64,000 nucleotides of DNA from positions 1 through 64,000 of the IMG/VR virus record IMGVR_UViG_3300037524_002067; one strand, written 5' to 3'. Numbering within the stretch: position 1 is the first letter of the stretch; every line of letters begins with the position of its first letter. The stretch comes from a virus. The translations under genes and the position numbers were made by a program. Of this stretch, positions 47,014-59,298 are shown one piece after another. The notes beneath the pieces are model-generated. The model was not told where the DNA came from, did not search any database, and worked only from the letters and a program-made list of their open reading frames with translations.

Positions 47014-47736
47014 ATGACACAAAATGAGTCAAAAGGTTTATGGGCCAACATACACGCCAAAAGAGAAAGAGGAGAGTCTCCAGCAAAACCTGGAGATAAA
47101 GATTATCCAAAAAAAGACGCTTGGGAAAAGGCTAAAAACGAAAACAACAACTATGTAGAAGATAACGAAAAAGAAGGTGGTTATTATAAAATGACTCTCT
47201 TGAATATAAAAAGCATGTCAGAAGATATTAATGATTTAGTTGGCGAAGATGATGATTTACCATCGTGGATTCAAGATAAAATTACAATAGCTGAACACAA
47301 CATGGATGCTATTTTGGGCTATCTAATTTCCAAAAACCCAGATGCTTTTGAATACGCTTCAGATGATGAAGACGAATTAGACGATGAAGAGCTGGAGGAA
47401 GCTTGCAATTATTTAAAAAAATCAAACAAATTCAAATCAAAAGATGGCAATTTTGAATTATACGAACTAGATGAGAACAGCAATTCCGACTTAAACGAAG
47501 CAGAGTATCAAGGGAGAAAAGTTAAGTTGGGAAAAATAATGAGAGGTGATGTAAAAAAATTTAAAGTATTCGTAAAAAAACCAAACGGAAAAATTGTAAA
47601 AGTTAACTTTGGTGATCCCAATATGAGAATTAAAAAAAATATTCCAGCAAGAAGAAAGTCTTTTAGAGCAAGACATCGTTGTGATAATCCAGGCCCAAGG
47701 TGGAAAGCTAAATACTGGGCATGCAGAACTTGGTAA
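47014..47736 (+). CDS. Conserved phage protein
   Basis: GLWANIHAKR N-terminus; KVNFGD...RRKSFRARHRC...YWAC C-terminus. Confidence 0.65.
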   Translation: MTQNESKGLWANIHAKRERGESPAKPGDKDYPKKDAWEKAKNENNNYVEDNEKEGGYYKMTLLNIKSMSEDINDLVGEDDDLPSWIQDKITIAEHNMDAILGYLISKNPDAFEYASDDEDELDDEELEEACNYLKKSNKFKSKDGNFELYELDENSNSDLNEAEYQGRKVKLGKIMRGDVKKFKVFVKKPNGKIVKVNFGDPNMRIKKNIPARRKSFRARHRCDNPGPRWKAKYWACRTW

Positions 47737-48233
47737 AATTAAAAATGAAATTCTTTGTTTATATACTACTTTTTTTCAACCTCAACCTGATTGCGGCGCA
47801 AGAGTTTTGCGACTATTACGAAGACACAACAAAAATGCAATTGGTAAGAGTGGACATGAAAGAACAAATGAGAAACACTCTATTTGAGTGTTTAAAAAAT
47901 GGTGACATAAAAGATATCATGATATTTTTAGATCCTAGTCTAAACTTCATTTATGTAAAAGACACTTCAGTTATAAAAAATCAAATTGTCACCGAATATG
48001 AAGCTATAGAAATATTAAAAAATGTTGAAAAGGTTGATTACAATTTTTTTAAAATACAATATGATCTATATCATGATGGAAATTATATGATCATAGCTAG
48101 ATTATATAAATCAGATATGGAAATTATTCCACTAATGAACATTTACTTCATTTTCTCAAAATATAGCTTCGTTAAAGCCATTGCAGTGCAGTGGGGAATT
48201 ACAAAATAAACATACTGGGAAATTAAAAACTAG

Positions 48234-48318
48234 AAGCGGGGGTCAGATTCGAACTGACGTTCTCTTTCGAGTTAAAGGTTATGAGCCTTCGCTGGATCCA
48301 ACTCCAGTCGACCCCGCA
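48234..48318 (-). tRNA. tRNA-Met(CAT), initiator-like, with long variable arm
   Basis: 1:72 mismatch; loop CTCATAA. Confidence 0.75.
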
Positions 48319-48323
48319 ATTTG

Positions 48324-48468
48324 TTGCAATGGTTGGAATTGCACCAACTTTCTCTGACTTAGCGCCAGCGAGTTTTAGGTAGATAAATCCACAAACTACA
48401 AACACATATTACGTAATTCTATGTTTGCTAAAAGGATTCCATATAACCTTCTGTCTCTCTCCATTGCG
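48324..48468 (-). ncRNA. tRNA-shell RNA (acceptor and T arm with a large insert)
   Basis: CGCAATG/CATTGCA-A; T arm GTTGG-TGCAATT-CCAAC. Confidence 0.45.
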
Positions 48469-48481
48469 AGAGTTTGTTCTG

Positions 48482-48565
48482 TACCAGCGGTGGGACTCAA
48501 ACCCACAATACCACAGGGTATCCGCTTATGAGGCGGACGCAATTATCACATCTGCTCACACTGGC
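48482..48565 (-). tRNA. tRNA-Met(CAT) with long variable arm
   Basis: TCCGC-CTCATAA-GCGGA. Confidence 0.8.
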
Positions 48566-48606
48566 ATATTTATAGACACCATTATAATGTCTATAAATTT
48601 TTCTTG

Positions 48607-48877
48607 TTGAATAGACAGGATTTTAACCTGTGAACACGTTATGTGATCTGTGTTACACACAGACGGTTTTAACACTTACCTACTATCCATGACATGATTT
48701 CTCATTTACTAATACTGTTTCAATTAGATCGAGCGTTGCATGCCACGCCGAGAGAGTTCGTGTTTGGCGGATGTTATCTCACTCACAACTATCAACACTA
48801 TGTTTAGATGCTGGGATGTTTTGCATCCATCTTATCAATTACACTGAATGGTGAAGCACCAATTCCAGCATACTCAA
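48607..48877 (-). ncRNA. tRNA-shell RNA with a ~200 nt insert
   Basis: TTGAGTA/TATTCAA stem, D-like GCTGGAATTGGT, T arm ACAGG-TTAAAAT-CCTGT. Confidence 0.45.
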
Positions 48878-49025
48878 TATTTTCAAAACCATTTTCTTTG
48901 GTTATCAAAGACTCACTCTCGCTAATAGCTCCAGTAAATTTATCAAACCCTTTTTTGTTTTCAATCTTGCCAGTTGAAGGATTGTAATAAAATTAATTTT
49001 TACCTATTTATAATAAAACAATTTT

Positions 49026-49709
49026 ATGAAACCACTTTACACTACTAAAGAATTTAATTTAGCTAAATCTTTTGATAAATTACCTTGTGAATGCTATCAT
49101 TGTAAACAGCCATTTTTAATTTATAAAACTCGAATTGTTGATGTTTTAAGACCAAATAATAAAGTTAAAACAAAAGCAAAATATTGCTCAAAAGAATGCT
49201 CTTCAAAAGCTAGGAGTTTAAAAATAACCTATCAATGCCATCATTGCGGAAAGGAATGTGTTAAAAAAGCATCTCAAATCAAACTATCAAAATCAGGGTT
49301 TAATTTTTGTTCAAAACATTGCACATCTTCTTATCATATTAAACATAAAAACTACGGAACTAATCGTTCAAAACTAGAACAATGGATTGCTGAACAATTA
49401 ATTATAAAATATCCAGATCTTAATATTAAATACAACGATACTGAAACACTTAACGGATTAGAATTAGATATTTATATCCCATCCTTACAGATTGCTTTCG
49501 AATTAAATGGCGTTTTTCATTATGAGCCAATTTTTGGACAAGACAAACTTGACAAAACAATAAAAAAAGATAAGAACAAAATGAGCCTTTGTTTAGAAAA
49601 CAAAATTGATTTATGCATAATTGATACTACGTCACAAAAATATTTTAAAGAACATACTTCACATAAGTTTTTAGACATTATATTAAACATAATCCAACAG
49701 CGTTTATAA
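49026..49709 (+). CDS. Zn-finger + PD-(D/E)xK-type endonuclease
   Basis: Repeated CxxC and YCS..C; ELDIYIPSLQIAFELNGVFHY. Confidence 0.75.
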   Translation: MKPLYTTKEFNLAKSFDKLPCECYHCKQPFLIYKTRIVDVLRPNNKVKTKAKYCSKECSSKARSLKITYQCHHCGKECVKKASQIKLSKSGFNFCSKHCTSSYHIKHKNYGTNRSKLEQWIAEQLIIKYPDLNIKYNDTETLNGLELDIYIPSLQIAFELNGVFHYEPIFGQDKLDKTIKKDKNKMSLCLENKIDLCIIDTTSQKYFKEHTSHKFLDIILNIIQQRL

Positions 49710-50228
49710 TTTATTGAATTGAATTCTTAAATCATGGATCTTTCTTTGATAATCTGAAACACTGATTTCTTTGGTGTTTGACGTTTTCTTCGTCAACTCA
49801 CTACGCATTTCATCTTCCAAAAATTTAATCCTCTCCTGAAGTTTTAACTTCTTCTTTTCTTGATTTACCATCACGTTCTTTTTTTAGCTCATTAATTATT
49901 TCTTGTAACACAATTGCATGTCGAGCATACACAGTCATTTGTGCTTTTATTTTTTCTATATGATCTATGGTTGTTAATTTTGATTTTAATCTATAACCGT
50001 CTCCATCATCATTGTTTTGATTTTGCATTTGTTTCTCTTTCTTCTTTCTACCGCATTGTTATAATCTACAACACACGTATCAATGTCATCTTCATATATA
50101 CGACATTTAATTTTTAAATTGCTTATTACATAAAACATTGACATAAACATCAAAGCTACAATAAGCGTTTTTTCCTTTTTTCAATTTCAATTTTTCATTT
50201 TTTTGTTTTTTTTTATTTGTTTTTCTTG

Positions 50229-50301
50229 AGCAGAAGAGGAGAATCGAACTCCCGTCCACGACTTGGCAAGCCATTGTAATAAGCCACTATACGACTTCTG
50301 C
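50229..50301 (-). tRNA. tRNA-Gly(GCC)
   Basis: Loop TTGCCAA; U73. Confidence 0.85.
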
Positions 50302-50375
50302 AGGAACAACCTCAGTCAACATTTTGCTACGAGTTACTGACGTAGTTTGGAGTTAACCTCTGGTTGCATTTTTTG

Positions 50376-50446
50376 AGCAAAGTATCGGATTCGAACCGCA
50401 CCCCGACATTGGAAGTGTCGTGCTCACCCTTCGAGCTCTACCTTGC
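50376..50446 (-). tRNA. tRNA-Gly(TCC) overlapping the HNH 3' end
   Basis: CGACA-CTTCCAA-TGTCG. Confidence 0.8.
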
Positions 50447-51059
50447 ATTTATTTATGTTTCTATTTCTTCCTCCGTGTGTATCTAAAGTCGCATTACAAT
50501 TTGGACATAATATTCTTAAATTTTCTAATCTATTATCGTTGTGAACGCCGTTTTCATGATCCAAAATTAAACTCATATGTGCACCATTCCATTCCTCCCC
50601 TTGCCCACACATTTCACATTTATTTTGTTTCAACCCCTCCCTATATAATCTATTTTTTAAAGATACAGTGTTGTTATAGGTTGAATTTTTAATTAATACA
50701 TTTTTTAAATCTATTTTTTTACTAAAAATAACTTGTTCTCCTTTATAATCAAAATGAGAAATATCAACCTCATATAAATTTATGTATTTTATAACTGTTT
50801 TACGATTCCCGTGCCCATCATTTAATTGTAATTTTCTAACAGCATCAGAATAACTTCTTGAATTTTTTATTATTTCAATAAATTCTTCTTTTACATATCT
50901 TTTGCTCCTCAAGTTTAATTTTAACTCTTTTGCTTTGTGTTTTACTGAATCTTTACTTCTATTAAGATTAACCATACAATAATTGACCCCGTATTCAACA
51001 TAATTAGAAATAACAAACTCAATTTCTTTTTCACTCCATTTTTTTGGTATTTTTTTCAT
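50424..51059 (-). CDS. HNH homing endonuclease
   Basis: LDHENGVHNDNRLENLRILCPNC. Confidence 0.9.
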   Translation of the reverse strand: MKKIPKKWSEKEIEFVISNYVEYGVNYCMVNLNRSKDSVKHKAKELKLNLRSKRYVKEEFIEIIKNSRSYSDAVRKLQLNDGHGNRKTVIKYINLYEVDISHFDYKGEQVIFSKKIDLKNVLIKNSTYNNTVSLKNRLYREGLKQNKCEMCGQGEEWNGAHMSLILDHENGVHNDNRLENLRILCPNCNATLDTHGGRNRNINKCKVELEG

Positions 51060-51120
51060 TGCTCTTTACTTTTATTATAAATATTGCCAAAAAAAGCAAA
51101 GTGCAATAAAAATGTTTTTG

Positions 51121-51203
51121 AGCGAGTTGGGGTAGTCGAAACCCCATATATGCATTGGAAGTGCATCATAATACGCCTTTAAGCTCCGTTATACTAAACT
51201 CGC
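51121..51203 (-). tRNA. tRNA-Gly(TCC) with expanded D loop
   Basis: ATGCA-CTTCCAA-TGCAT. Confidence 0.75.
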
Positions 51204-51456
51204 AGTTTACACATTTTCCTTTAATTTTCAGAGGGCGGCAATGTGTTAGCCTTTCTGCTACTCTTTATAAAACACATCCTGCATATTCGTCCCTAAGGAT
51301 AATGTTATTTTGCAGTGCATCCCCTTAAAGGAATGACGGAGGATATCCGTTTCTTGTGCTTCAATTGGTATGGGCATTGTAAAAAACAAGACTACAAACC
51401 CATCTTTACAGCGTTACACATCTACCCGTAGCTAGGTCACAGACATGGCGCAGTCG

Positions 51457-51575
51457 TGGGGAGAGCTAGACTCGAACTAGCATAGCCATTTAAGGCAGCG
51501 TGGTTACGACCACACAATGCTTACCGTACCGAGCTTCGATGATCAGTCGAAAAGCGTGTACATTGCCACCTCCCC
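51457..51575 (-). tRNA. Atypical Tyr-like tRNA with a ~40 nt D-loop insert
   Basis: Acceptor GGGGAG/CTCCCC, loop TCGTAA, Tyr-type variable arm, normal T arm. Confidence 0.45.
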
Positions 51576-51601
51576 AAATAATTTTTTTGATTTAAATACG
51601 A

Positions 51602-52063
51602 TTAATCGTCTTTTTTGCTGTTAGCGTATTTAACGCCCATTATCGTTCCAATAATACTGAAACTGTTTGTAAGCAAGATGCTAAACATATTGCTCCATGT
51701 TGATTCTATGATTTTTACCTCATAACCTTTTACAAGAGCTAGAACATATAACCCTGTTGTAATTAATCCAACTCCAAGTATAATCCCAAGAGCAACTTTT
51801 ACAATTTGACCAACCAATTGATTTTGAGTTTTCTTTTGTAAAACTTCAAGTTCATGAAGCGCATCTTCTTTTTCTTGAGCGTTTTTTTGGCTTTGCTCCA
51901 AATGCCACTTGTTTATTCTTCCAACACTTGTGCCAAGTTCACGAGCAACAGCAAATTGATTTTCAACATCTTTACCATTAAGTTTCCCTGTTCTTAAATA
52001 CTCTTCATAAAGCTTTATTTTGTCAGGTGTAAATTCATTGCCAGATGTTTCTTCTTTTGCCAT
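51602..52063 (-). CDS. Two-TM membrane protein
   Basis: Two hydrophobic helices; likely start MAKEE. Confidence 0.6.
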   Translation of the reverse strand: MAKEETSGNEFTPDKIKLYEEYLRTGKLNGKDVENQFAVARELGTSVGRINKWHLEQSQKNAQEKEDALHELEVLQKKTQNQLVGQIVKVALGIILGVGLITTGLYVLALVKGYEVKIIESTWSNMFSILLTNSFSIIGTIMGVKYANSKKDD

Positions 52064-52135
52064 TGTTCGTTGTTTTTTTACTATTATAAATAATAACAAA
52101 AAAACTTCGGGCACAGGTTTTTAAAAAATAATTTG

Positions 52136-52221
52136 TGGAAATGACGGGACTCGAACCCGCATTAGAACTTTCGTCCGTCCTGATTGCAAATCAGGTGCCT
52201 AACCAATTAGACTACATCCCC
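52136..52221 (-). tRNA. tRNA-Ala(TGC) with long variable arm
   Basis: G3:U70; loop TTTGCAA. Confidence 0.85.
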
Positions 52222-52226
52222 ATTTG

Positions 52227-52300
52227 TGGAGGTAAACGGATTCGAACCGATGACCCCCTGCGTGCAAGGCAGGTGCTCTAGCCAGCTGAGCTATACCCCC
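52227..52300 (-). tRNA. tRNA-Ala(TGC)
   Basis: Canonical cloverleaf; G3:U70. Confidence 0.95.
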
Positions 52301-52421
52301 AATTTAAAAAAATATGGCCTGGCATTGTGTTGATCAACCATGTATATCTCTTGTATACACAGCCAAGTTCGCCAATTTGTGTTACCGTAAAGAGAATGAA
52401 TAGGTAACCACCATATTTTTT

Positions 52422-52946
52422 TTATTTCCACATTCCACCTGAATTCAATCTTTCGATTTCTTTTTCAAGTTTCTTTTGTTTTTTCTTTTCAATGAAATCA
52501 TCAAATTCTTTTAAAAGAGATTCTGGAATCTCAATTCCTTTATCTGAAAATTCTTTCAAAATCTCTTCTCTTGTAAAAGTGTGCTCAACAATTCCATCTG
52601 TCCACTGATCACGCCATAAACCCCAACCTCTTTTTCCAACCAACAAAGATTTCATGATGTTTGGATGTCTTGTAATGATTGGTTTTCCACCACCATACTG
52701 ACCATTTTCAAATTTTCTGAAACAGTTTTTTACTTCTGGACCATTCACATCAAACTCTATTTCTTTATCCACTTGTGAACCACAAAACGTTATCAATCCT
52801 TTTCGATTGATATCTAAGAAAAATTTAAACATCTTGTTGAAATTATCGGAATACTTCTGAAGTTTTCTGTCTAATTGTGTTCCAATTTCTTTTTTTCTTT
52901 GCTCAATTCTTTTGAGTCTTTCATTGGTTAGCTTCTCGCTCCCCAT
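52422..52946 (-). CDS. Hypothetical protein
   Basis: Start trimmed to MGSEK to avoid overlap with tRNA-Tyr. Confidence 0.55.
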   Translation of the reverse strand: MGSEKLTNERLKRIEQRKKEIGTQLDRKLQKYSDNFNKMFKFFLDINRKGLITFCGSQVDKEIEFDVNGPEVKNCFRKFENGQYGGGKPIITRHPNIMKSLLVGKRGWGLWRDQWTDGIVEHTFTREEILKEFSDKGIEIPESLLKEFDDFIEKKKQKKLEKEIERLNSGGMWK

Positions 52947-52988
52947 CGCTCTTTCTCGCCTTTCATAGATTTTGTTTTTAATTGTTTG

Positions 52989-53070
52989 TTGGGGTGATCG
53001 GATTCGAACCGACTCAGCCAAGGCAACAGTTTTACAGACTGTCCTAACTCTCCAGCGTTAGCGCACCCCA
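52989..53070 (-). tRNA. tRNA-Tyr(GTA)
   Basis: ACAGT-CTGTAAA-ACTGT. Confidence 0.85.
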
Positions 53071-53078
53071 ATTTATTC

Positions 53079-53156
53079 TGGTGGGATAGAAGGGACTTGA
53101 ACCCTATGCGGTTGAGTTTTACAGACCCTCCGACTCTATTGCCTTGGCATTATCCC
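53079..53156 (-). tRNA. Divergent tRNA-Tyr(GTA)
   Basis: Loop CTGTAAA; encoded CCA; weak D stem. Confidence 0.65.
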
Positions 53157-53275
53157 AGTTGTAATTTTTGTCTAGGTTTTCTTCCTAACAATTGCTTTTA
53201 GAAGCTGACACATCCTCTGACGTGCCATCCCATGTACTTAGGGTAGCCTTTCAGCAACTTCTAAACTTTTTAATG

Positions 53276-53362
53276 CGGGACTGAAGGGAGTCGAACCCTC
53301 TACGAGATTTTCATCTGCACCACATAGACAGTGTGGCATACCAGCCGTTATACGCCAGCCCC
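53276..53362 (-). tRNA. tRNA-Asp(GTC) with long variable arm
   Basis: CCACA-CTGTCTA-TGTGG; G73. Confidence 0.85.
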
Positions 53363-53393
53363 AATTTGATTTTTATCTAGGTTTTCTCCTAGT

Positions 53394-53469
53394 TGGCAGT
53401 GCATACGGGGGTCGAACCCGCTCCTCAACCGCAGACAACGGCGCATCTTAACCATTTGACCTATGCACT
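53394..53469 (-). tRNA. tRNA-Asp(GTC)
   Basis: GCCG-TTGTCTG-CGGT; GCCA end. Confidence 0.85.
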
Positions 53470-53482
53470 ATTTTTATTCTTG

Positions 53483-53551
53483 TCATCAAGGCTGGATTTC
53501 CACCAACAACCTCCCTGTGCACGGGACTCTTAGATGTTGAGCTACTTGATG
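53483..53551 (-). ncRNA. Degenerate tRNA-like RNA
   Basis: Acceptor CATCAAG/CTTGATG, D and T arms, shortened anticodon arm. Confidence 0.45.
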
Positions 53552-53556
53552 AAGTA

Positions 53557-53638
53557 TGATGGTAATTGTGAAGCTATGTTTTTCGATTGGAAGTCAAATG
53601 CCCTAACGGGCTAGAAGTAAGCAAACACATGGCCATCA
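53557..53638 (-). ncRNA. Minimal Y-RNA-like RNA
   Basis: Terminal stem TGATGG/CCATCA with GGCCATGTG...TTACTTCT motif. Confidence 0.5.
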
Positions 53639-53643
53639 ATAAG

Positions 53644-53723
53644 TACGCTGCAGTGGGATTTTCACCCTCGGTTACATCTCATTCCTCACGTGGAATGTAT
53701 CTTAAAAGTTAGACGACACAGCG
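53644..53723 (-). ncRNA. Degenerate tRNA-like RNA
   Basis: Acceptor CGCTG/CAGCG; CATTCC-ACGTGA-GGAATG arm. Confidence 0.4.
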
Positions 53724-53802
53724 ATTTAATTTCCTACGGGGTTGAAACTTGCGTATGAAGAGCGACTTCACAGAGACAAATAACAACTCACCCGTTTATG
53801 TG

Positions 53803-53876
53803 TCGAGTAGACTGGAATCGAACCAGCTAACTGATGCTTCCAGGGCACCCGTGCTTATAACCTTAGTCACTACTCG
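53803..53876 (-). tRNA. Divergent tRNA-Pro(TGG) overlapping the HNH stop codon
   Basis: GGTGC-CCTGGAA-GCATC; C1:G72, A73. Confidence 0.7.
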
Positions 53877-54508
53877 TTTTTTTTATTATTTTTACCAGCA
53901 TAAGTTTTTGTTTGACTGTGACAATTAGGACAAAGAAATCTTAAATTTTCTATTCTATTATCGTTATTCACCCCATTCTTATGATCAAGTTGTAATACTA
54001 TTTTTTCATTCATCCACTCTCCTCTATTTTTGCATTTTTCACATGCATATTCTAATAATTCTTCTTTTAACAATCTTCTTTTTAAAGCGTGTTGACTGTA
54101 ACTTGAATTTATGATTAATATCTCATTTATATCTTTTCCTTTTTGTCCAGTTCTTTCTCTTCTAATGCCTTTAAATTTTTGACCTTCAAAATGAGAATTA
54201 TCTAAGTTGTTTTCAACAATTCTTTTTTTTATAGTTCTTATATTAGAACCTGTTGTTTTAATTTTAAATCCTCTACATATTTCAGAATATGTTGTTGATG
54301 TTTTTACCAATTCTTTTAATTTAGTTACATCATATTCTCTTCCAAGTCTTATTTTAAAATGTTTTAAATTTAAATTTAATTCTAATGCTATTTCTTTTAT
54401 TTTATTAAAAGTATAACCATTGTTTTTTAAACTCATTTTAGAACATACCTCACTCAAAGAAGTACTATTTTTTATTGCACGTTTTAATTTATCTTTATCT
54501 ATTTTCAT
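53870..54508 (-). CDS. HNH homing endonuclease
   Basis: LQLDHKNGVNNDNRIENLRFLCPNCHSQT. Confidence 0.9.
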   Translation of the reverse strand: MKIDKDKLKRAIKNSTSLSEVCSKMSLKNNGYTFNKIKEIALELNLNLKHFKIRLGREYDVTKLKELVKTSTTYSEICRGFKIKTTGSNIRTIKKRIVENNLDNSHFEGQKFKGIRRERTGQKGKDINEILIINSSYSQHALKRRLLKEELLEYACEKCKNRGEWMNEKIVLQLDHKNGVNNDNRIENLRFLCPNCHSQTKTYAGKNNKKNE

Positions 54509-54634
54509 ATATTTTATTTATAAAAAAATACGAAAAATAAAAGTATTAAACAAATTATTTCAATCAATTAGACCAACTCACGCAACTCCTGATATGAAGT
54601 TTTTGATTTAAAACAAAAGCAACAAAACAAATCG

Positions 54635-54707
54635 TCAGGGTGACAGGGGTTGAACCTGCGACCTCCTGGTCCCAAACCAGGCGCTCTCCCAACTGAGCTA
54701 CACCCTG
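54635..54707 (-). tRNA. tRNA-Pro(TGG)
   Basis: CCTGG-TTTGGGA-CCAGG. Confidence 0.95.
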
Positions 54708-54789
54708 AAGTGCTGTGGGTTTTGGAGTACCCACAGCTAAATTTCCCAATATGTCAAAGATCTCATGTTATTTTTTAACTGAAATAACC

Positions 54790-54825
54790 AAAACAAAAAA
54801 CCCGCTCTTTTTAGGGAGCGGGTTT
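54790..54825 (-). terminator. Attenuator terminator of the Pro/Asp/Tyr/Ala/Gly/Met array
   Basis: AAACCCGCTC-CCTAAAAA-GAGCGGGTTT followed by a U tract. Confidence 0.85.
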
Positions 54826-54855
54826 GTTAATTCCTTTTGTTTGTATCACTTGTTT

Positions 54856-54984
54856 TTATCCAAGCTTTCTAAAAGTCAAAACATATCCGCTCCCATAGCT
54901 ATAATCATAAGCTGGGGCATACCCTGCACCGCCCATCATCGGGGCTGCTGGAGTAGTTGCTGAATATGTAGTTACTGTTTTCAC
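54856..54984 (-). CDS. Attenuator leader peptide 4 (MKTVTTYSATTPAAPMMGGAGYAPAYDYSYGSGYVLTFRKLG)
   Basis: 17 consecutive P/A/M/G/Y/D codons; GGGAGCGG is complementary to terminator CCGCTCCC. Confidence 0.85.
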   Translation of the reverse strand: MKTVTTYSATTPAAPMMGGAGYAPAYDYSYGSGYVLTFRKLG

Positions 54985-55031
54985 CTGTATTGTTTCTTTT
55001 AAATAGTTAGAAAAAATGTTTTTCTGAAAAT

Positions 55032-55060
55032 TTATACGTACAAAGATATGTTAAGTTTCA
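55032..55060 (-). promoter_or_regulatory. Composite promoter: TGAAAC-N16-CGTA with nested TATCTTTG
   Basis: Recurrent motif. Confidence 0.7.
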
Positions 55061-55115
55061 AGAATACGCAAGTTTTTTTTGAAAAAATCTTCTAAGTGAT
55101 TAAAAATCAGCTGAA

Positions 55116-55706
55116 TTAATTTTTTGTACTCAACATTAAATCCTTCACGTTCTGTACACAAAATCCATGACCTTCCCTTCTGATCAGCTCATAAATCACA
55201 CCTGTAAGCTCAGATGGTTTTGTGAATACCTGCTCTAATCCTGGGCATTTCAATGGTTCTTTAGAAAGAAATTCTCCATATCCTTTATCGGCCCACTCTT
55301 GCATTGTAGCTGCCACATCATCCACCTGGAAGGCCATGTGATGAATTCCTCCTACACCATCTCTAGCTTTAACCCAGTCTCCAACAATAGAACCTTCTTC
55401 GCCATCAGATATAAATATCTCTGGTGCCACATGATAAACCTGGTTAATATCACCGAATGGAAAGTTTATTGCCCAAGGCAAATTCTCGCTCACCTTTTCA
55501 GATGGCACAAGCACAAGACAATTGGCCTCTGTACCATCATCAAATTGCAATTTAAAGCCATCTGGAAGATCTTCAGCAATTCTATACCCAAGGCAATCAA
55601 TAAAGAACTGAGCTGTTTTATGACGGTTTTTGACCCTATAGGCCACATGGTCTAATCTCATTTTTTGCGTTTTTTGAATAAATAGGAATAAAAAAACCCC
55701 AGACAA
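55116..55706 (-). CDS. VOC/glyoxalase-family protein (HPPD C-terminal-like)
   Basis: LDHVAYRV, GIHHMAF, QVFTKP and YELIRR; real start probably MRLDH. Confidence 0.8.
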   Translation of the reverse strand: MSGVFLFLFIQKTQKMRLDHVAYRVKNRHKTAQFFIDCLGYRIAEDLPDGFKLQFDDGTEANCLVLVPSEKVSENLPWAINFPFGDINQVYHVAPEIFISDGEEGSIVGDWVKARDGVGGIHHMAFQVDDVAATMQEWADKGYGEFLSKEPLKCPGLEQVFTKPSELTGVIYELIRREGHGFCVQNVKDLMLSTKN

Positions 55707-55735
55707 GTCTGAGGTTTAAATTTCTAAAAGTGGTC

Positions 55736-55927
55736 TTACCAACCCTCTTTTTTTACTCCTGCTGCAACAGCTGCTTCTGCAGTTTCTTTAGACATTATAA
55801 GGGACATTTTATGACCATCTTTCGACGCGCCCTTACAAATGTATCCACCTTTTGATGTTAAGCTAATAATGGGATCTACCATTGCTTCTTTTTGTTTAGT
55901 CTTAAGACAATACGCTTCAATAATCAT
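55736..55927 (-). CDS. Small DUF5679-like protein
   Basis: AYCLKTK...KG...G.KMS. Confidence 0.55.
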   Translation of the reverse strand: MIIEAYCLKTKQKEAMVDPIISLTSKGGYICKGASKDGHKMSLIMSKETAEAAVAAGVKKEGW

Positions 55928-56010
55928 AATTTATAGTTTTAATTGGTTTAGTATAAATATAGTCACTTTTTATATAAGTACACAATATTTAAAAAGAAAA
56001 ACGTTGATAG

Positions 56011-56889
56011 TCAGGTGTTTTCTTTGTAGAACTTAAAATAATACGCTTCCATTGGGTTTTTACTCATTGTTTCAAAATTACCTTTTCCTAAAAAAAGCTC
56101 GTCTTTTCTAATACCAGTACCAATAATATTAATCATTTTTTTATTTTTAAACCACTTCATATCGTTTGGATTTCTAATCCATCTAACCAAAAAATCGTTA
56201 TAATAAATTTTAATAAATTTTTCAGAATATATACATTTTATATTTAATGTTTTATCTTGATCGACTATTTTGCCGTGTTTGCCAGCTTTTAAATCATAAT
56301 GTAAACCTGGTTTTATTTTAGAATCCCCTAGGTGTATATTTGTCTCTATTCTTTCTTCGTATCGACCATATTCATTTGACAAACCCTCCATTGGATCTAT
56401 TTCTGGTGGCCAAGAATCTTCGGCAGATAACCATGTAGCTGGCCACAAAATAGCGCCACCTGGCATTTTTATACTCCACTCATAAAGACCATATCCATAA
56501 GAATTTCGTGAAGCTATTAAACCTATACCAAAAGGAATTGTGACTGGTGTCAAATTATCTTTTGGTTGTTCTCCAGGATTTACAATATAAGTGGTAACTG
56601 TTTTTGTGTTATTGGTAACTTTACAAAACAAACCATTTTGATTAATTTCTATTGCTTCTGGGTCATACCACTGTTGTAAATCCCCAGGATGATAATCTCC
56701 CCAAGCTTGATTTTTTCTGTAATGATTTTCAAGTTCAACCATAGTCATGTTTTTAAAATCATGGTGTGTGTCAAGTTTAAATTTTTCACAACTTATTTTA
56801 AAAAATCCTTTTTTGATTTTAAAAATATTATAAAGAACAAAATTTTTAAAACCTAGTATTTTGTTACACAATTTATCACTTATAATCAT
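56011..56889 (-). CDS. GH16 family glycoside hydrolase
   Basis: YGLYE...LWPATWL...WPPEIDPMEG (ExDxxE). Confidence 0.85.
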   Translation of the reverse strand: MIISDKLCNKILGFKNFVLYNIFKIKKGFFKISCEKFKLDTHHDFKNMTMVELENHYRKNQAWGDYHPGDLQQWYDPEAIEINQNGLFCKVTNNTKTVTTYIVNPGEQPKDNLTPVTIPFGIGLIASRNSYGYGLYEWSIKMPGGAILWPATWLSAEDSWPPEIDPMEGLSNEYGRYEERIETNIHLGDSKIKPGLHYDLKAGKHGKIVDQDKTLNIKCIYSEKFIKIYYNDFLVRWIRNPNDMKWFKNKKMINIIGTGIRKDELFLGKGNFETMSKNPMEAYYFKFYKENT

Positions 56890-57396
56890 ATTTTTTTCTT
56901 ATAAATAGATTGTGTTTTTAAAATCAAGTGTTTACTAATTATTTCTTATTTTTAAAACTAGGTTCCATCACATTCTCAACCACAACAAATGGTAAACGTT
57001 TACCATCAATAAGATAATCTCTTTTATCGTGTATTGTACTTTTAGTATGTGTTTTATCAACTTTAGTAACAGTTATTTTAAGACGCGGACCTTTTGCTGA
57101 TTTAATCCTATGAATTTGAAGGTCGCCAGGTCCACCGCCATACCAAATATCTTGACTTCCCCAACCATGCTTTTTTCTATACCATTCTCTACCACCATTC
57201 TCTTCGATAAGATATTTGAATGTTTCATCAAAAAATGGGTTTGGAATTCCTAAAATATCGCAATCCCCCCCAACGGTTGCAGTCATTAAATCAACATTGT
57301 ATTGACCTCCACATGATTTACACTCACACATTCTCCATTTTGTATGAATTAGTCTAACAACATCGTGACATTTTTTACAATGAATGAGTTTCATAT

Positions 57397-57840
57397 TTAT
57401 TTATTTCCAGTGCTGCCAAATCCGCCAGTTCCGCGATCCGTAGACCCCAATTCTTCTACGGTTTCAACCACTTCAAATTCGGCTACTTCATGTTTAGCAA
57501 AAACCATTTGAGCAATACGCTCACCATGTTCAATTTTTTGATGATCCGTTGATGAGTTGAATAAAATAACTTTTATCTCACCTCTATAATCGGCATCTAT
57601 CGTGCCTGGTGTGTTAAGTACCGTAATTCCTCTTTTTGCTGCCAAACCGCTACGAGGTCTTACTTGTCCTTCGAAACCCAAAGGAATTTCCATAAAAAGA
57701 CCTGTGGGTATAATTTCTCTTCCGCCTGGGGTTATCATTATTGACTCTTCAAGGTTTGCTTTTAAGTCAAATCCAGCAGCACCAGCAGTTGCATAAGCTG
57801 GTAATTCATTTTTTGATTTGTTTACAATTTTTATTTTCAT
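57397..57840 (-). CDS. dut: dUTPase
   Basis: [22 protein letters not shown] and [10 protein letters not shown]. Confidence 0.97.
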
Positions 57841-57855
57841 ATGCAGTATTTATTT

Positions 57856-59298
57856 TTAAAAAGGTAAATCTTTATTTGGGCCATTTCCACTTTTGGATGT
57901 TTTTGGATTCATAATTTCATTCCAATCTAATCCTTGCGAGCTTTTTCTCGAATTGTTGTTGATTTCAAATCCAACTGGGGTCATTCTTTCTTTTGATATG
58001 CTTTCTTCATCAGCCATATCATATACTTCTTGCAAATCTTTGTTAAGTGTTTCTACAACTGATTTAAGAGTATCAACAGTTATTTTTTCAACTTTTTTTG
58101 AAACGGCGTAAGACATTATTGCTTCAGATAAGTTTTTTATTTGGGCACCAGTCATTGTGCCACCATCTTTATCGAGAATAATTTTATCATAGACCTGCTT
58201 CAAAACTTCTTCAACTACTTTTGGTTTATCTTTTTTTGAATCGAATAATATTCCATCAAAATAATGCTTCACACATAAAATTGAATTTATTTCATCGAGC
58301 GCTCCAAATTTTACAACTTTATCAATACGCCCTGGACGTTTTAGAATACGTGGTTCAATTCTTTTTGGGTGATTTGTTGTAAAAATAGAATAACAACCCT
58401 TCTCTGTTTTTGGCTGATTTATTCCATCAAGATAATTAAGAATTCCAGAATCGCTCCATGGAATTGTGCTTTCAGCGTCTTCTAGTATTATAAGTGTTGG
58501 CATTTTAGCTTTAGATACATTATATGTGTGCATCATAACAGCTTTTAAATCTGTTGCAATTACAACACACATTCTTTTAGAATACTCCTGAGCAATCAAC
58601 ATTGCAGCGCTTGTTTTTCCTCCACCAGGCTCACCAACAAGAAGCATTCTCCTTGATCCTGGTTGAGAAAATCTTGTATAATAATCGACGTTATCAAAAA
58701 ACTGTTTTATATCTTCTTCTACCAACTTTATATTTTGATGAAAGACCACATTTTTTTTAAAATCTTTTGGTTTAATTTCTTCATAATTCAACACAGCACC
58801 AATTGATGGTGCTATGGTTACATGTATTTTATAAAGACCTATTTTTGGTTTAGAATTTATTTTGGCTTGTTGATGTAGGTACCTATAATAGTTATTTATT
58901 GTTTCTTTAGATCCAACTCCATAAGTTTCAACTATAGAGTTTCTACCAAAACCAACAACTCGTTGCGAGTAAATTAAAAAACTCTCATCGCTAAAACTCA
59001 ATTTAAATATACCAGATTCTGCATCGAATTTAACAGCTCTTGTTTTTTGATCAAAGCTGTGAGATAAAACCATATTTGGCAACACATCGTTTTTTATTGA
59101 CTCTATTTTTATAGGTTTAAAAACTTTTGAGTCTTTGTTTTTTGATTTGGAGTTTTTATAAATTTCTTCTCTTATTTTAGAAGGGCTTATTGCAAAGTCT
59201 AAAACAGCAACAGCAAACTCATCTTGTTTGCTCATTTCTTTAAAATTTGATCTAAGAACTTTGATTATTTGATCTCTTTGGTTTTTCGATTCAGCCAT
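57856..59298 (-). CDS. AAA+ ATPase
   Basis: GEPGGGKT, ILED, TTNHP and RPGRID. Confidence 0.9.
   Translation of the reverse strand: MAESKNQRDQIIKVLRSNFKEMSKQDEFAVAVLDFAISPSKIREEIYKNSKSKNKDSKVFKPIKIESIKNDVLPNMVLSHSFDQKTRAVKFDAESGIFKLSFSDESFLIYSQRVVGFGRNSIVETYGVGSKETINNYYRYLHQQAKINSKPKIGLYKIHVTIAPSIGAVLNYEEIKPKDFKKNVVFHQNIKLVEEDIKQFFDNVDYYTRFSQPGSRRMLLVGEPGGGKTSAAMLIAQEYSKRMCVVIATDLKAVMMHTYNVSKAKMPTLIILEDAESTIPWSDSGILNYLDGINQPKTEKGCYSIFTTNHPKRIEPRILKRPGRIDKVVKFGALDEINSILCVKHYFDGILFDSKKDKPKVVEEVLKQVYDKIILDKDGGTMTGAQIKNLSEAIMSYAVSKKVEKITVDTLKSVVETLNKDLQEVYDMADEESISKERMTPVGFEINNNSRKSSQGLDWNEIMNPKTSKSGNGPNKDLPF

Follow-up and report, generated by a model that had tools for sequence, protein, structure and literature searches.

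A codon-matched leader that probably gates a phage tRNA array by ribosome-mediated transcription attenuation

The leader that lies ahead of the fourth tRNA array of a phage genome, and which is here called leader 4, is in our judgement quite likely to be a ribosome-mediated transcription attenuator gating that array, and the phage probably makes these tRNAs only when ribosomes decode the matching codons slowly. This reading, proposed in a preliminary description of the same DNA, is supported by sequence statistics, by comparison of paralogs and orthologs and by co-variation, and the predictions that it makes at the level of sequence, for the codon set, the start codon, the antiterminator and the Met codons, were fulfilled. 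The sequence itself shows the open reading frame (ORF), its codon match with the array, the terminator, the complementary segment and the conservation of all these; that the ORF is translated, how the switch is timed, that readthrough is regulated and how far the transcript extends are inferred from sequence and comparison alone. With somewhat less assurance, we also favour a broader view, in which the tRNA blocks of this phage are expressed on demand, each with a leader peptide that polls exactly the tRNAs of its own block and, as soon as one of them is short, opens a terminator. If so, these would be the first tRNA genes attenuated by a leader peptide, with a built-in sensor of tRNA depletion. 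The DNA studied (the window) comprises the first 64 kb of a single virus record of 154,343 bp (G000), with 32.5% G+C. All 37 tRNA genes are on the minus strand and grouped in blocks. The features of the leader 4 unit and of its paralogs are collected in Table 1; the coordinates given in the preliminary description were rechecked against the sequence and all of them are correct.

Table 1. Coordinates of the leader 4 unit, of paralogous units and of paired tRNA genes, in the numbering of G000
Feature	Position	Strand	Basis
Promoter-like site	55071-55041	-	pattern match
A-rich 5' untranslated leader, 56 nt, without Shine-Dalgarno sequence	54985-55040	-	side-by-side reading of five units
Leader 4 ORF, 42 codons and stop	GTG 54984-54982 to stop 54858-54856	-	ORF listing
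Control run, codons 12-28, n = 17, only Pro/Ala/Met/Gly/Tyr/Asp	54951-54901	-	
Region 1, outer strand ACAUAUUC, codons 6-8	54962-54969	-	minimum-free-energy folds
Region 2, antiterminator strand GGGAGCGG (54894-54887) followed by AUAUGU (partner of region 1)	54881-54894	-	
Intrinsic terminator	54825-54798, T-run to 54795	-	terminator scan and folds
Conserved 12-nt box TTGACATATTGG	54757-54746	-	ortholog comparison
Hairpin between terminator and tRNA-Pro	54737-54712	-	ortholog comparison
tRNA array 4	48233-54707	-	ARAGORN, Rfam, Pfam
Unit 1593 (leader 1), leader rich in Phe, Leu, Val, Arg	array Tyr, Phe x2, then contig end		
Unit 28989 (leader 3), leader rich in Asn, His, Thr, Lys, Ile, Met, Leu, Cys	array of exactly those tRNAs, 28286-20108		
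Unit 77509 (leader 5), leader rich in Ser, Arg, Trp	array Ser x3, Arg, Trp x2		
Normal/long tRNA pair	52226-52300 vs 52135-52221		
Normal/long tRNA pair	53394-53469 vs 53275-53363		

In the proposed mechanism, a host promoter of the Bacteroidota type would start a transcript whose first feature is the 42-codon ORF, and a ribosome would read the 17 Pro, Ala, Met, Gly, Tyr and Asp codons while the RNA polymerase nears the terminator. Should charged tRNA for any of the six amino acids be scarce, decoding would be slow and the ribosome would lag in the control run, where it would keep the helix between regions 1 and 2 open; the freed region 2 would then pair with the emerging 5' arm of the terminator, the terminator would be blocked and the polymerase would continue into the Pro, Asp, Tyr, Ala, Gly and Met tRNA genes. 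With fast decoding, the ribosome would either cover region 2 or clear it and let regions 1 and 2 pair again, in which case the terminator would form and transcription would halt at about 54795. Such a circuit would amount to negative feedback, in which a block of tRNAs is provided as the need arises. The shortage itself might be due to a mismatch in codon usage, to a loss of host tRNAs caused by the phage or to anticodon-nuclease defences of the host.

The run of 17 consecutive Pro/Ala/Met/Gly/Tyr/Asp codons reported earlier is present, and nowhere else in the six reading frames of the 154-kb genome is there a run of this six-amino-acid set as long, the runner-up being 11. The earlier remark that such GC-rich codons are improbable by chance in an AT-rich genome also holds: the run has 59% G+C (vs 32.5% for the genome), and since the six residues make up 27% of all residues in long ORFs, the expected number of runs of 17 over all six frames of the genome is only about 8e-5. 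The codon set was said to equal the isotypes of the array, and from 54707 down to 48233 ARAGORN indeed finds only those six, arranged as Pro, Asp x2, Tyr, Ala x2, Gly x2, Tyr, Met x2. Every codon of the control run can be read by the anticodons of the array (TGG, TGC, CAT, GCC, TCC, GTA and GTC), including the rare codons GCC, CCG, GGC and GGG, each of which accounts for 4-14% of the codons of its own amino acid. ORFs as short as this one are seldom called by gene callers; a protein search with the 42-residue leader 4 peptide matched a single cluster (P0001).

The correspondence between leader and array is not confined to leader 4. Counting leader 4, G000 has at least four paralogous leader units, and in each of them the leader agrees with the array that follows it. 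Promoter and 5' leader recur at 1593, 28989, 77509 and, in a degenerate form, at 82506, and the 5' untranslated leader is conserved between the paralogous units. The array of unit 1593 is cut by the end of the contig (Table 1), and in a related record of 189 kb (G001) an array of this type goes on with Val, Leu and Arg tRNAs. G001 has also an extra unit, in which six consecutive Gln codons precede four tRNA-Gln genes. As in leader 4, the leader run is the longest of its own set in its own genome for leader 3 (25 vs 15), leader 5 (13 vs 7) and the Gln leader of G001 (6 vs 4), the Phe/Leu/Val/Arg set being the exception. Tabulated against each other, leaders and arrays give a strongly diagonal pattern, and the match extends to the anticodon level: leader 1 uses the Arg codons CGC and CGT and its array has tRNA-Arg(ACG), while leader 5 uses AGA and AGG and its array has tRNA-Arg(TCT), accompanied in relatives by tRNA-Arg(CCT). 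Pattern scans of viral and metagenome contigs revealed about 25 further leader-array loci, which belong to the same five classes and keep the array of their class.

Two loci with the same promoter depart from this layout. The degenerate copy at 82506 (G000:C1:81480-82506, outside the window) has an ORF of only 2 codons, and downstream of it are a gene that resembles peptidyl-tRNA hydrolase 2 (recognized by eye) and a tRNA with the anticodon CTA, which would read amber. The metagenome contig Ga0307377_10012100 (L032) carries the promoter with a tRNA-Met(CAT) at +40, then a 24-codon ORF with only three Glu codons, a terminator and three tRNA-Glu genes; this Glu unit fits the leader-array pattern less clearly.

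Orthologs of leader 4 were found in other viral and metagenome contigs and fall into five diverged lineages, G000 itself included (G000+L045+L127; L001; L086+L088+L090; L091; L092). Behind four of the orthologs the array is complete (G000, L091, L092 and L127), and there it contains the six isotypes only, with Met last; the leaders retain Met codons where the Met tRNAs stand at the far end of the array, 5-7.5 kb downstream. The start codon, which is ATG in three lineages and GTG in the other two, is at the same site throughout, every gap in the ORF alignment has a length divisible by 3, and in the 8-codon block common to all orthologs the variable columns are distributed over the three codon positions as 0, 0 and 4. 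The leader 4 ORF thus behaves as a coding sequence, by comparative criteria; that it is translated, and from which codon, is inferred. The match is imperfect, as the run of some orthologs includes a codon for Asn, Ile, Leu or Lys, for which the array has no tRNA. A near-identity search of positions 52000-58000 against GenBank phages returned short tRNA matches only, and a search for relatives through the adjoining gene of the glyoxalase family found none in viral contigs.

The terminator of leader 4 consists of a 10-bp G+C-rich stem (54825-54816 with 54807-54798), an 8-nt loop and the T-run, and a spacer of 30 nt separates it from the stop codon of the ORF. The complementarity to the terminator noticed in the preliminary description is borne out, as region 2 contains the exact reverse complement of CCGCTCCC (54821-54814), which spans the 5' arm of the terminator and two bases of the loop. 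This perfect 8-bp duplex has a predicted energy of -18.8 kcal/mol (RNAduplex), equalled or exceeded in 0.4% of shuffles of the upstream RNA. In all seven leaders that we tested, the best upstream partner of the 5' arm beats the shuffles (p from 0 to 0.034) and is located in the ORF just 3' of the control codons. The leader 4 lineages have four different terminator stems, and the sequence of region 2 differs to match each of them while keeping its position in the ORF (codons 28-35). When the segment after the control run is considered, the cognate duplexes have energies from -14 to -19 kcal/mol and most non-cognate ones from -7 to -14 kcal/mol, the exceptions being pairs of lineages with similar stems. 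This diagonal pattern is obtained only once the comparison is limited to that segment; with whole ORFs the diagonal disappears, as the C-rich arms then find partners in the G+C-rich control codons. Region 1 is predicted to pair with the segment just 3' of GGGAGCGG, in a long-range helix that would enclose the control run. A helix of this kind, involving codons 6-8, is present in the minimum-free-energy folds of all five leader 4 lineages, with changes among orthologs that give mostly G-U pairs, and helices of the same topology are found in leaders 1, 3 and 5.

Besides the terminator and the long-range helix, the minimum-free-energy fold of the full-length leader (z = -2.75) has small hairpins within the control run. 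In a partial transcript, in which the 3' arm of the terminator has not been made yet, the 5' arm is paired with region 2 (P about 0.8). Simulated co-transcriptional folding with a ribosome mask reduces this pairing to P of 0.2-0.4 when the A site is at codons 27-37, that is, when a ribosome that has passed the control run sits on region 2. The pairing is weakened only in this case, and therefore a ribosome lagging in the control run would leave the antiterminator free. The ribosome-free partial transcript likewise favours the antiterminator (P of 0.79), and in equilibrium folds with a complete terminator and the ribosome mask, the terminator wins at almost every position of the ribosome. Equilibrium folding with the full terminator was therefore rejected as an on/off test, as it cannot separate the two states, and the switch must be kinetic. 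Because the antiterminator is preferred even without a ribosome as long as the 3' arm has not been made, the off state must depend on timing too, either through a ribosome on region 2 or through renewed pairing of regions 1 and 2. The stop codon lies 29 nt past region 2, too far for a ribosome halted there to cover it, in contrast to the trp leader.

These last points leave some room, although not much, for a sensor of another kind, in which the ORF is matched to the array by its codons but acts without a hairpin switch, through Rho-dependent termination, RNase processing or the stability of the tRNA precursor, and the terminator is merely a fixed partial stop. With a complete terminator the antiterminator is never favoured at equilibrium, region 2 is too distant from the stop codon to be masked in the classical geometry, and the conserved box and structured hairpin before the first tRNA resemble an RNA-level signal, all of which would agree with such a sensor. 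It does not account, however, for the change of region 2 along with four different stems at a constant position in the ORF, nor for a pairing that exceeds shuffles in every leader tested, observations that are hard to explain unless the pairing between region 2 and the terminator is under selection. We retain the attenuator as the preferred reading of leader 4.

The promoter of leader 4 comprises TTG (-33, 55071-55069), 20 nt, and TAnnTTTG (-7, 55048-55041), followed by a conserved start region, and the ORF begins 57 nt past the -7 element. We take it to be of the Bacteroidota type, by its likeness to the Bacteroidetes consensus. The extended motif was also found in 34 contigs of bacterial genomes (L093-L126), where it stands ahead of ordinary genes and where the leader-tRNA unit occurs in none. 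It precedes queA in Bacteroidales and, in genomes of Flavobacterium, a conserved small gene whose product has about 85 residues. The distribution of the motif points to a host among Bacteroidota, possibly Flavobacterium.

The 87 nt between the terminator of leader 4 and the tRNA-Pro at 54707 contain the box TTGACATATTGG, which starts with TTGACA and is kept in G000, L045, L127, L001, L086 and L092 while its flanks differ, and a hairpin whose shape, and not sequence, is conserved among orthologs. The box and the hairpin may be a processing signal or a promoter, and the box could be a second promoter. The presence of a TTGACA-containing conserved box in this gap, the strength of the terminator and the use of the same promoter motif by ordinary genes might suggest that leader and terminator form a separate gene for a small peptide or RNA, and that the array is transcribed constitutively from a promoter of its own. 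We regard this as improbable: no TAnnTTTG element follows the box, L091 lacks the box and yet keeps the leader 4 unit, and it would remain unexplained why codons and arrays agree in five families of paralogs, even at the level of the Arg anticodons. Moreover, at eight loci of the Gln paralogs the first tRNA begins 4-12 nt past the T-run of the terminator, which leaves no room for a separate promoter, and the Gln arrays very likely depend on readthrough; for the array of leader 4, the same dependence is inferred by analogy with them. A mere coincidence, i.e. a low-complexity Gly/Ala/Pro/Tyr-rich micro-ORF that happens to lie beside a tRNA cluster, can be practically dismissed, for although Gly/Tyr/Ala-rich low-complexity peptides do exist and the amino-acid set was compared with the array only after the run had been noticed, so few runs are expected in the whole genome, the run is the longest of its set for four leaders at once, and the match between codons and array is conserved in diverged relatives from several samples.

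As to the transcript predicted by the attenuator reading, a terminator scan revealed no strong minus-strand terminator inside array 4, and the downstream end of the array is the point where plus-strand genes converge. A single match of the promoter type was found within the array (49397-49369, minus strand, antisense inside the plus-strand ORF 49026-49709), and it could feed the last Tyr, Met and Met tRNAs independently of leader 4. In one metatranscriptome library, a contig of 197 nt identical to positions 54746-54942 bridges the terminator. This is only weak support for readthrough, as carry-over of DNA is not excluded and the depth is about 2. The library, the sole source of RNA data, is available as contigs only, with patchy cover (depth about 2) that leaves much of the array uncovered, and it is uninformative on the ends, strand and level of the transcript.

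The architecture of leader 4 resembles that of the enterobacterial leaders thrL (Thr, Ile), ilvL (Ile, Leu, Val), trpL, hisL, leuL and pheL, all with a promoter-proximal short ORF that contains a run of regulatory codons. As in those leaders, the 5' arm of the terminator has a potential partner in or just behind the ORF; an upstream strand that can sequester this partner is known from those leaders and is suggested for leader 4 by the predicted folds. The closest in design are the thr and ilv leaders, in which several amino acids are also sensed by one leader. The phage units differ from enterobacterial attenuators in that tRNAs are regulated instead of biosynthetic enzymes, that six isotypes would be sensed by leader 4 and up to eight by leader 3, that the unit is found in a phage, where every tRNA block has a paralogous cassette of its own, and that the promoter is of the Bacteroidota type with no Shine-Dalgarno sequence. 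Membership in the Rfam families Thr_leader, Trp_leader and Leu_leader was rejected, as the scores of 25.1, 22.3 and 21.2 bits are below the gathering thresholds of 55, 41 and 50 (E of 0.25-0.83) and the matches are mostly on the terminator. By the type of target, the closest known case is the pheST attenuator of Escherichia coli, in which the leader peptide PheM, rich in cognate codons, senses the supply of charged tRNA and controls readthrough of a terminator. There too, as proposed for leader 4, a leader peptide controls the terminator of a gene of the translation apparatus, but the regulated gene is cellular and encodes an aminoacyl-tRNA synthetase, and a single amino acid is sensed. T-box riboswitches share this logic, as they too exchange a terminator for an antiterminator ahead of translation-related genes when one particular charged tRNA runs short; however, they bind uncharged tRNA directly and need no ribosome. 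We rejected the identification of leader 4 as a T-box: RF00230 has no match in positions 47500-55500 at E values up to 1, and there is no specifier loop or T-box motif.

Why phages carry tRNA genes has been debated for decades, and to our knowledge the control of their expression has been hardly addressed in this debate. Phage-encoded tRNAs have been found to replace depleted host tRNAs and thereby to bypass host defences that target tRNA (PMC10264068, PMC11555353). The systems described there concern the sequence of the tRNAs and rescue by them, and they provide a plausible reason for supplying tRNAs on demand; PMC10264068 makes no mention of attenuation, leaders, promoters or terminators, and our full-text searches of the literature found no account of tRNA genes connected with a leader peptide or controlled in this way. 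If the attenuator reading is true, the phage gauges the speed of decoding for defined sets of tRNAs and tops up only those that are missing. A codon-matched attenuator would then tie phage tRNA arrays to the tRNA-targeting defences (PMC10264068, PMC11555353) and to host shut-off, and classical attenuation would be extended to a new class of regulated genes and to hosts of the Bacteroidota type without Shine-Dalgarno sequences. The cassettes are compact and modular, comprising a block of control codons and a terminator, and the idea is thus directly testable with reporters; they could also be used as natural sensors for the availability of tRNAs.

Array 4 includes several genes that do not encode tRNAs. 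Pfam identifies two HNH endonuclease genes (54508-53870 and 51059-50424, minus strand) and, in the plus-strand ORF 49026-49709, a zinc finger with an endonuclease-like tail, while two further ORFs within the array match no Pfam family. Relatives have different inserts at these places, e.g. PD-(D/E)XK and GIY-YIG genes in L127. Endonuclease inserts that vary between relatives are as expected of mobile homing elements. Just past the first HNH gene there is a tRNA-like element (53803-53876, minus strand) that scores 31.9 bits with the Rfam tRNA model (threshold 29), was missed by ARAGORN and has no readable anticodon arm. Many isotypes in the window, Ala and Asp among them, are represented by pairs of genes with the same anticodon, a tRNA of about 74 nt and a longer copy of 84-89 nt (Table 1), and both Met(CAT) genes of array 4 (48233-48318 and 48481-48565) are of the long kind.
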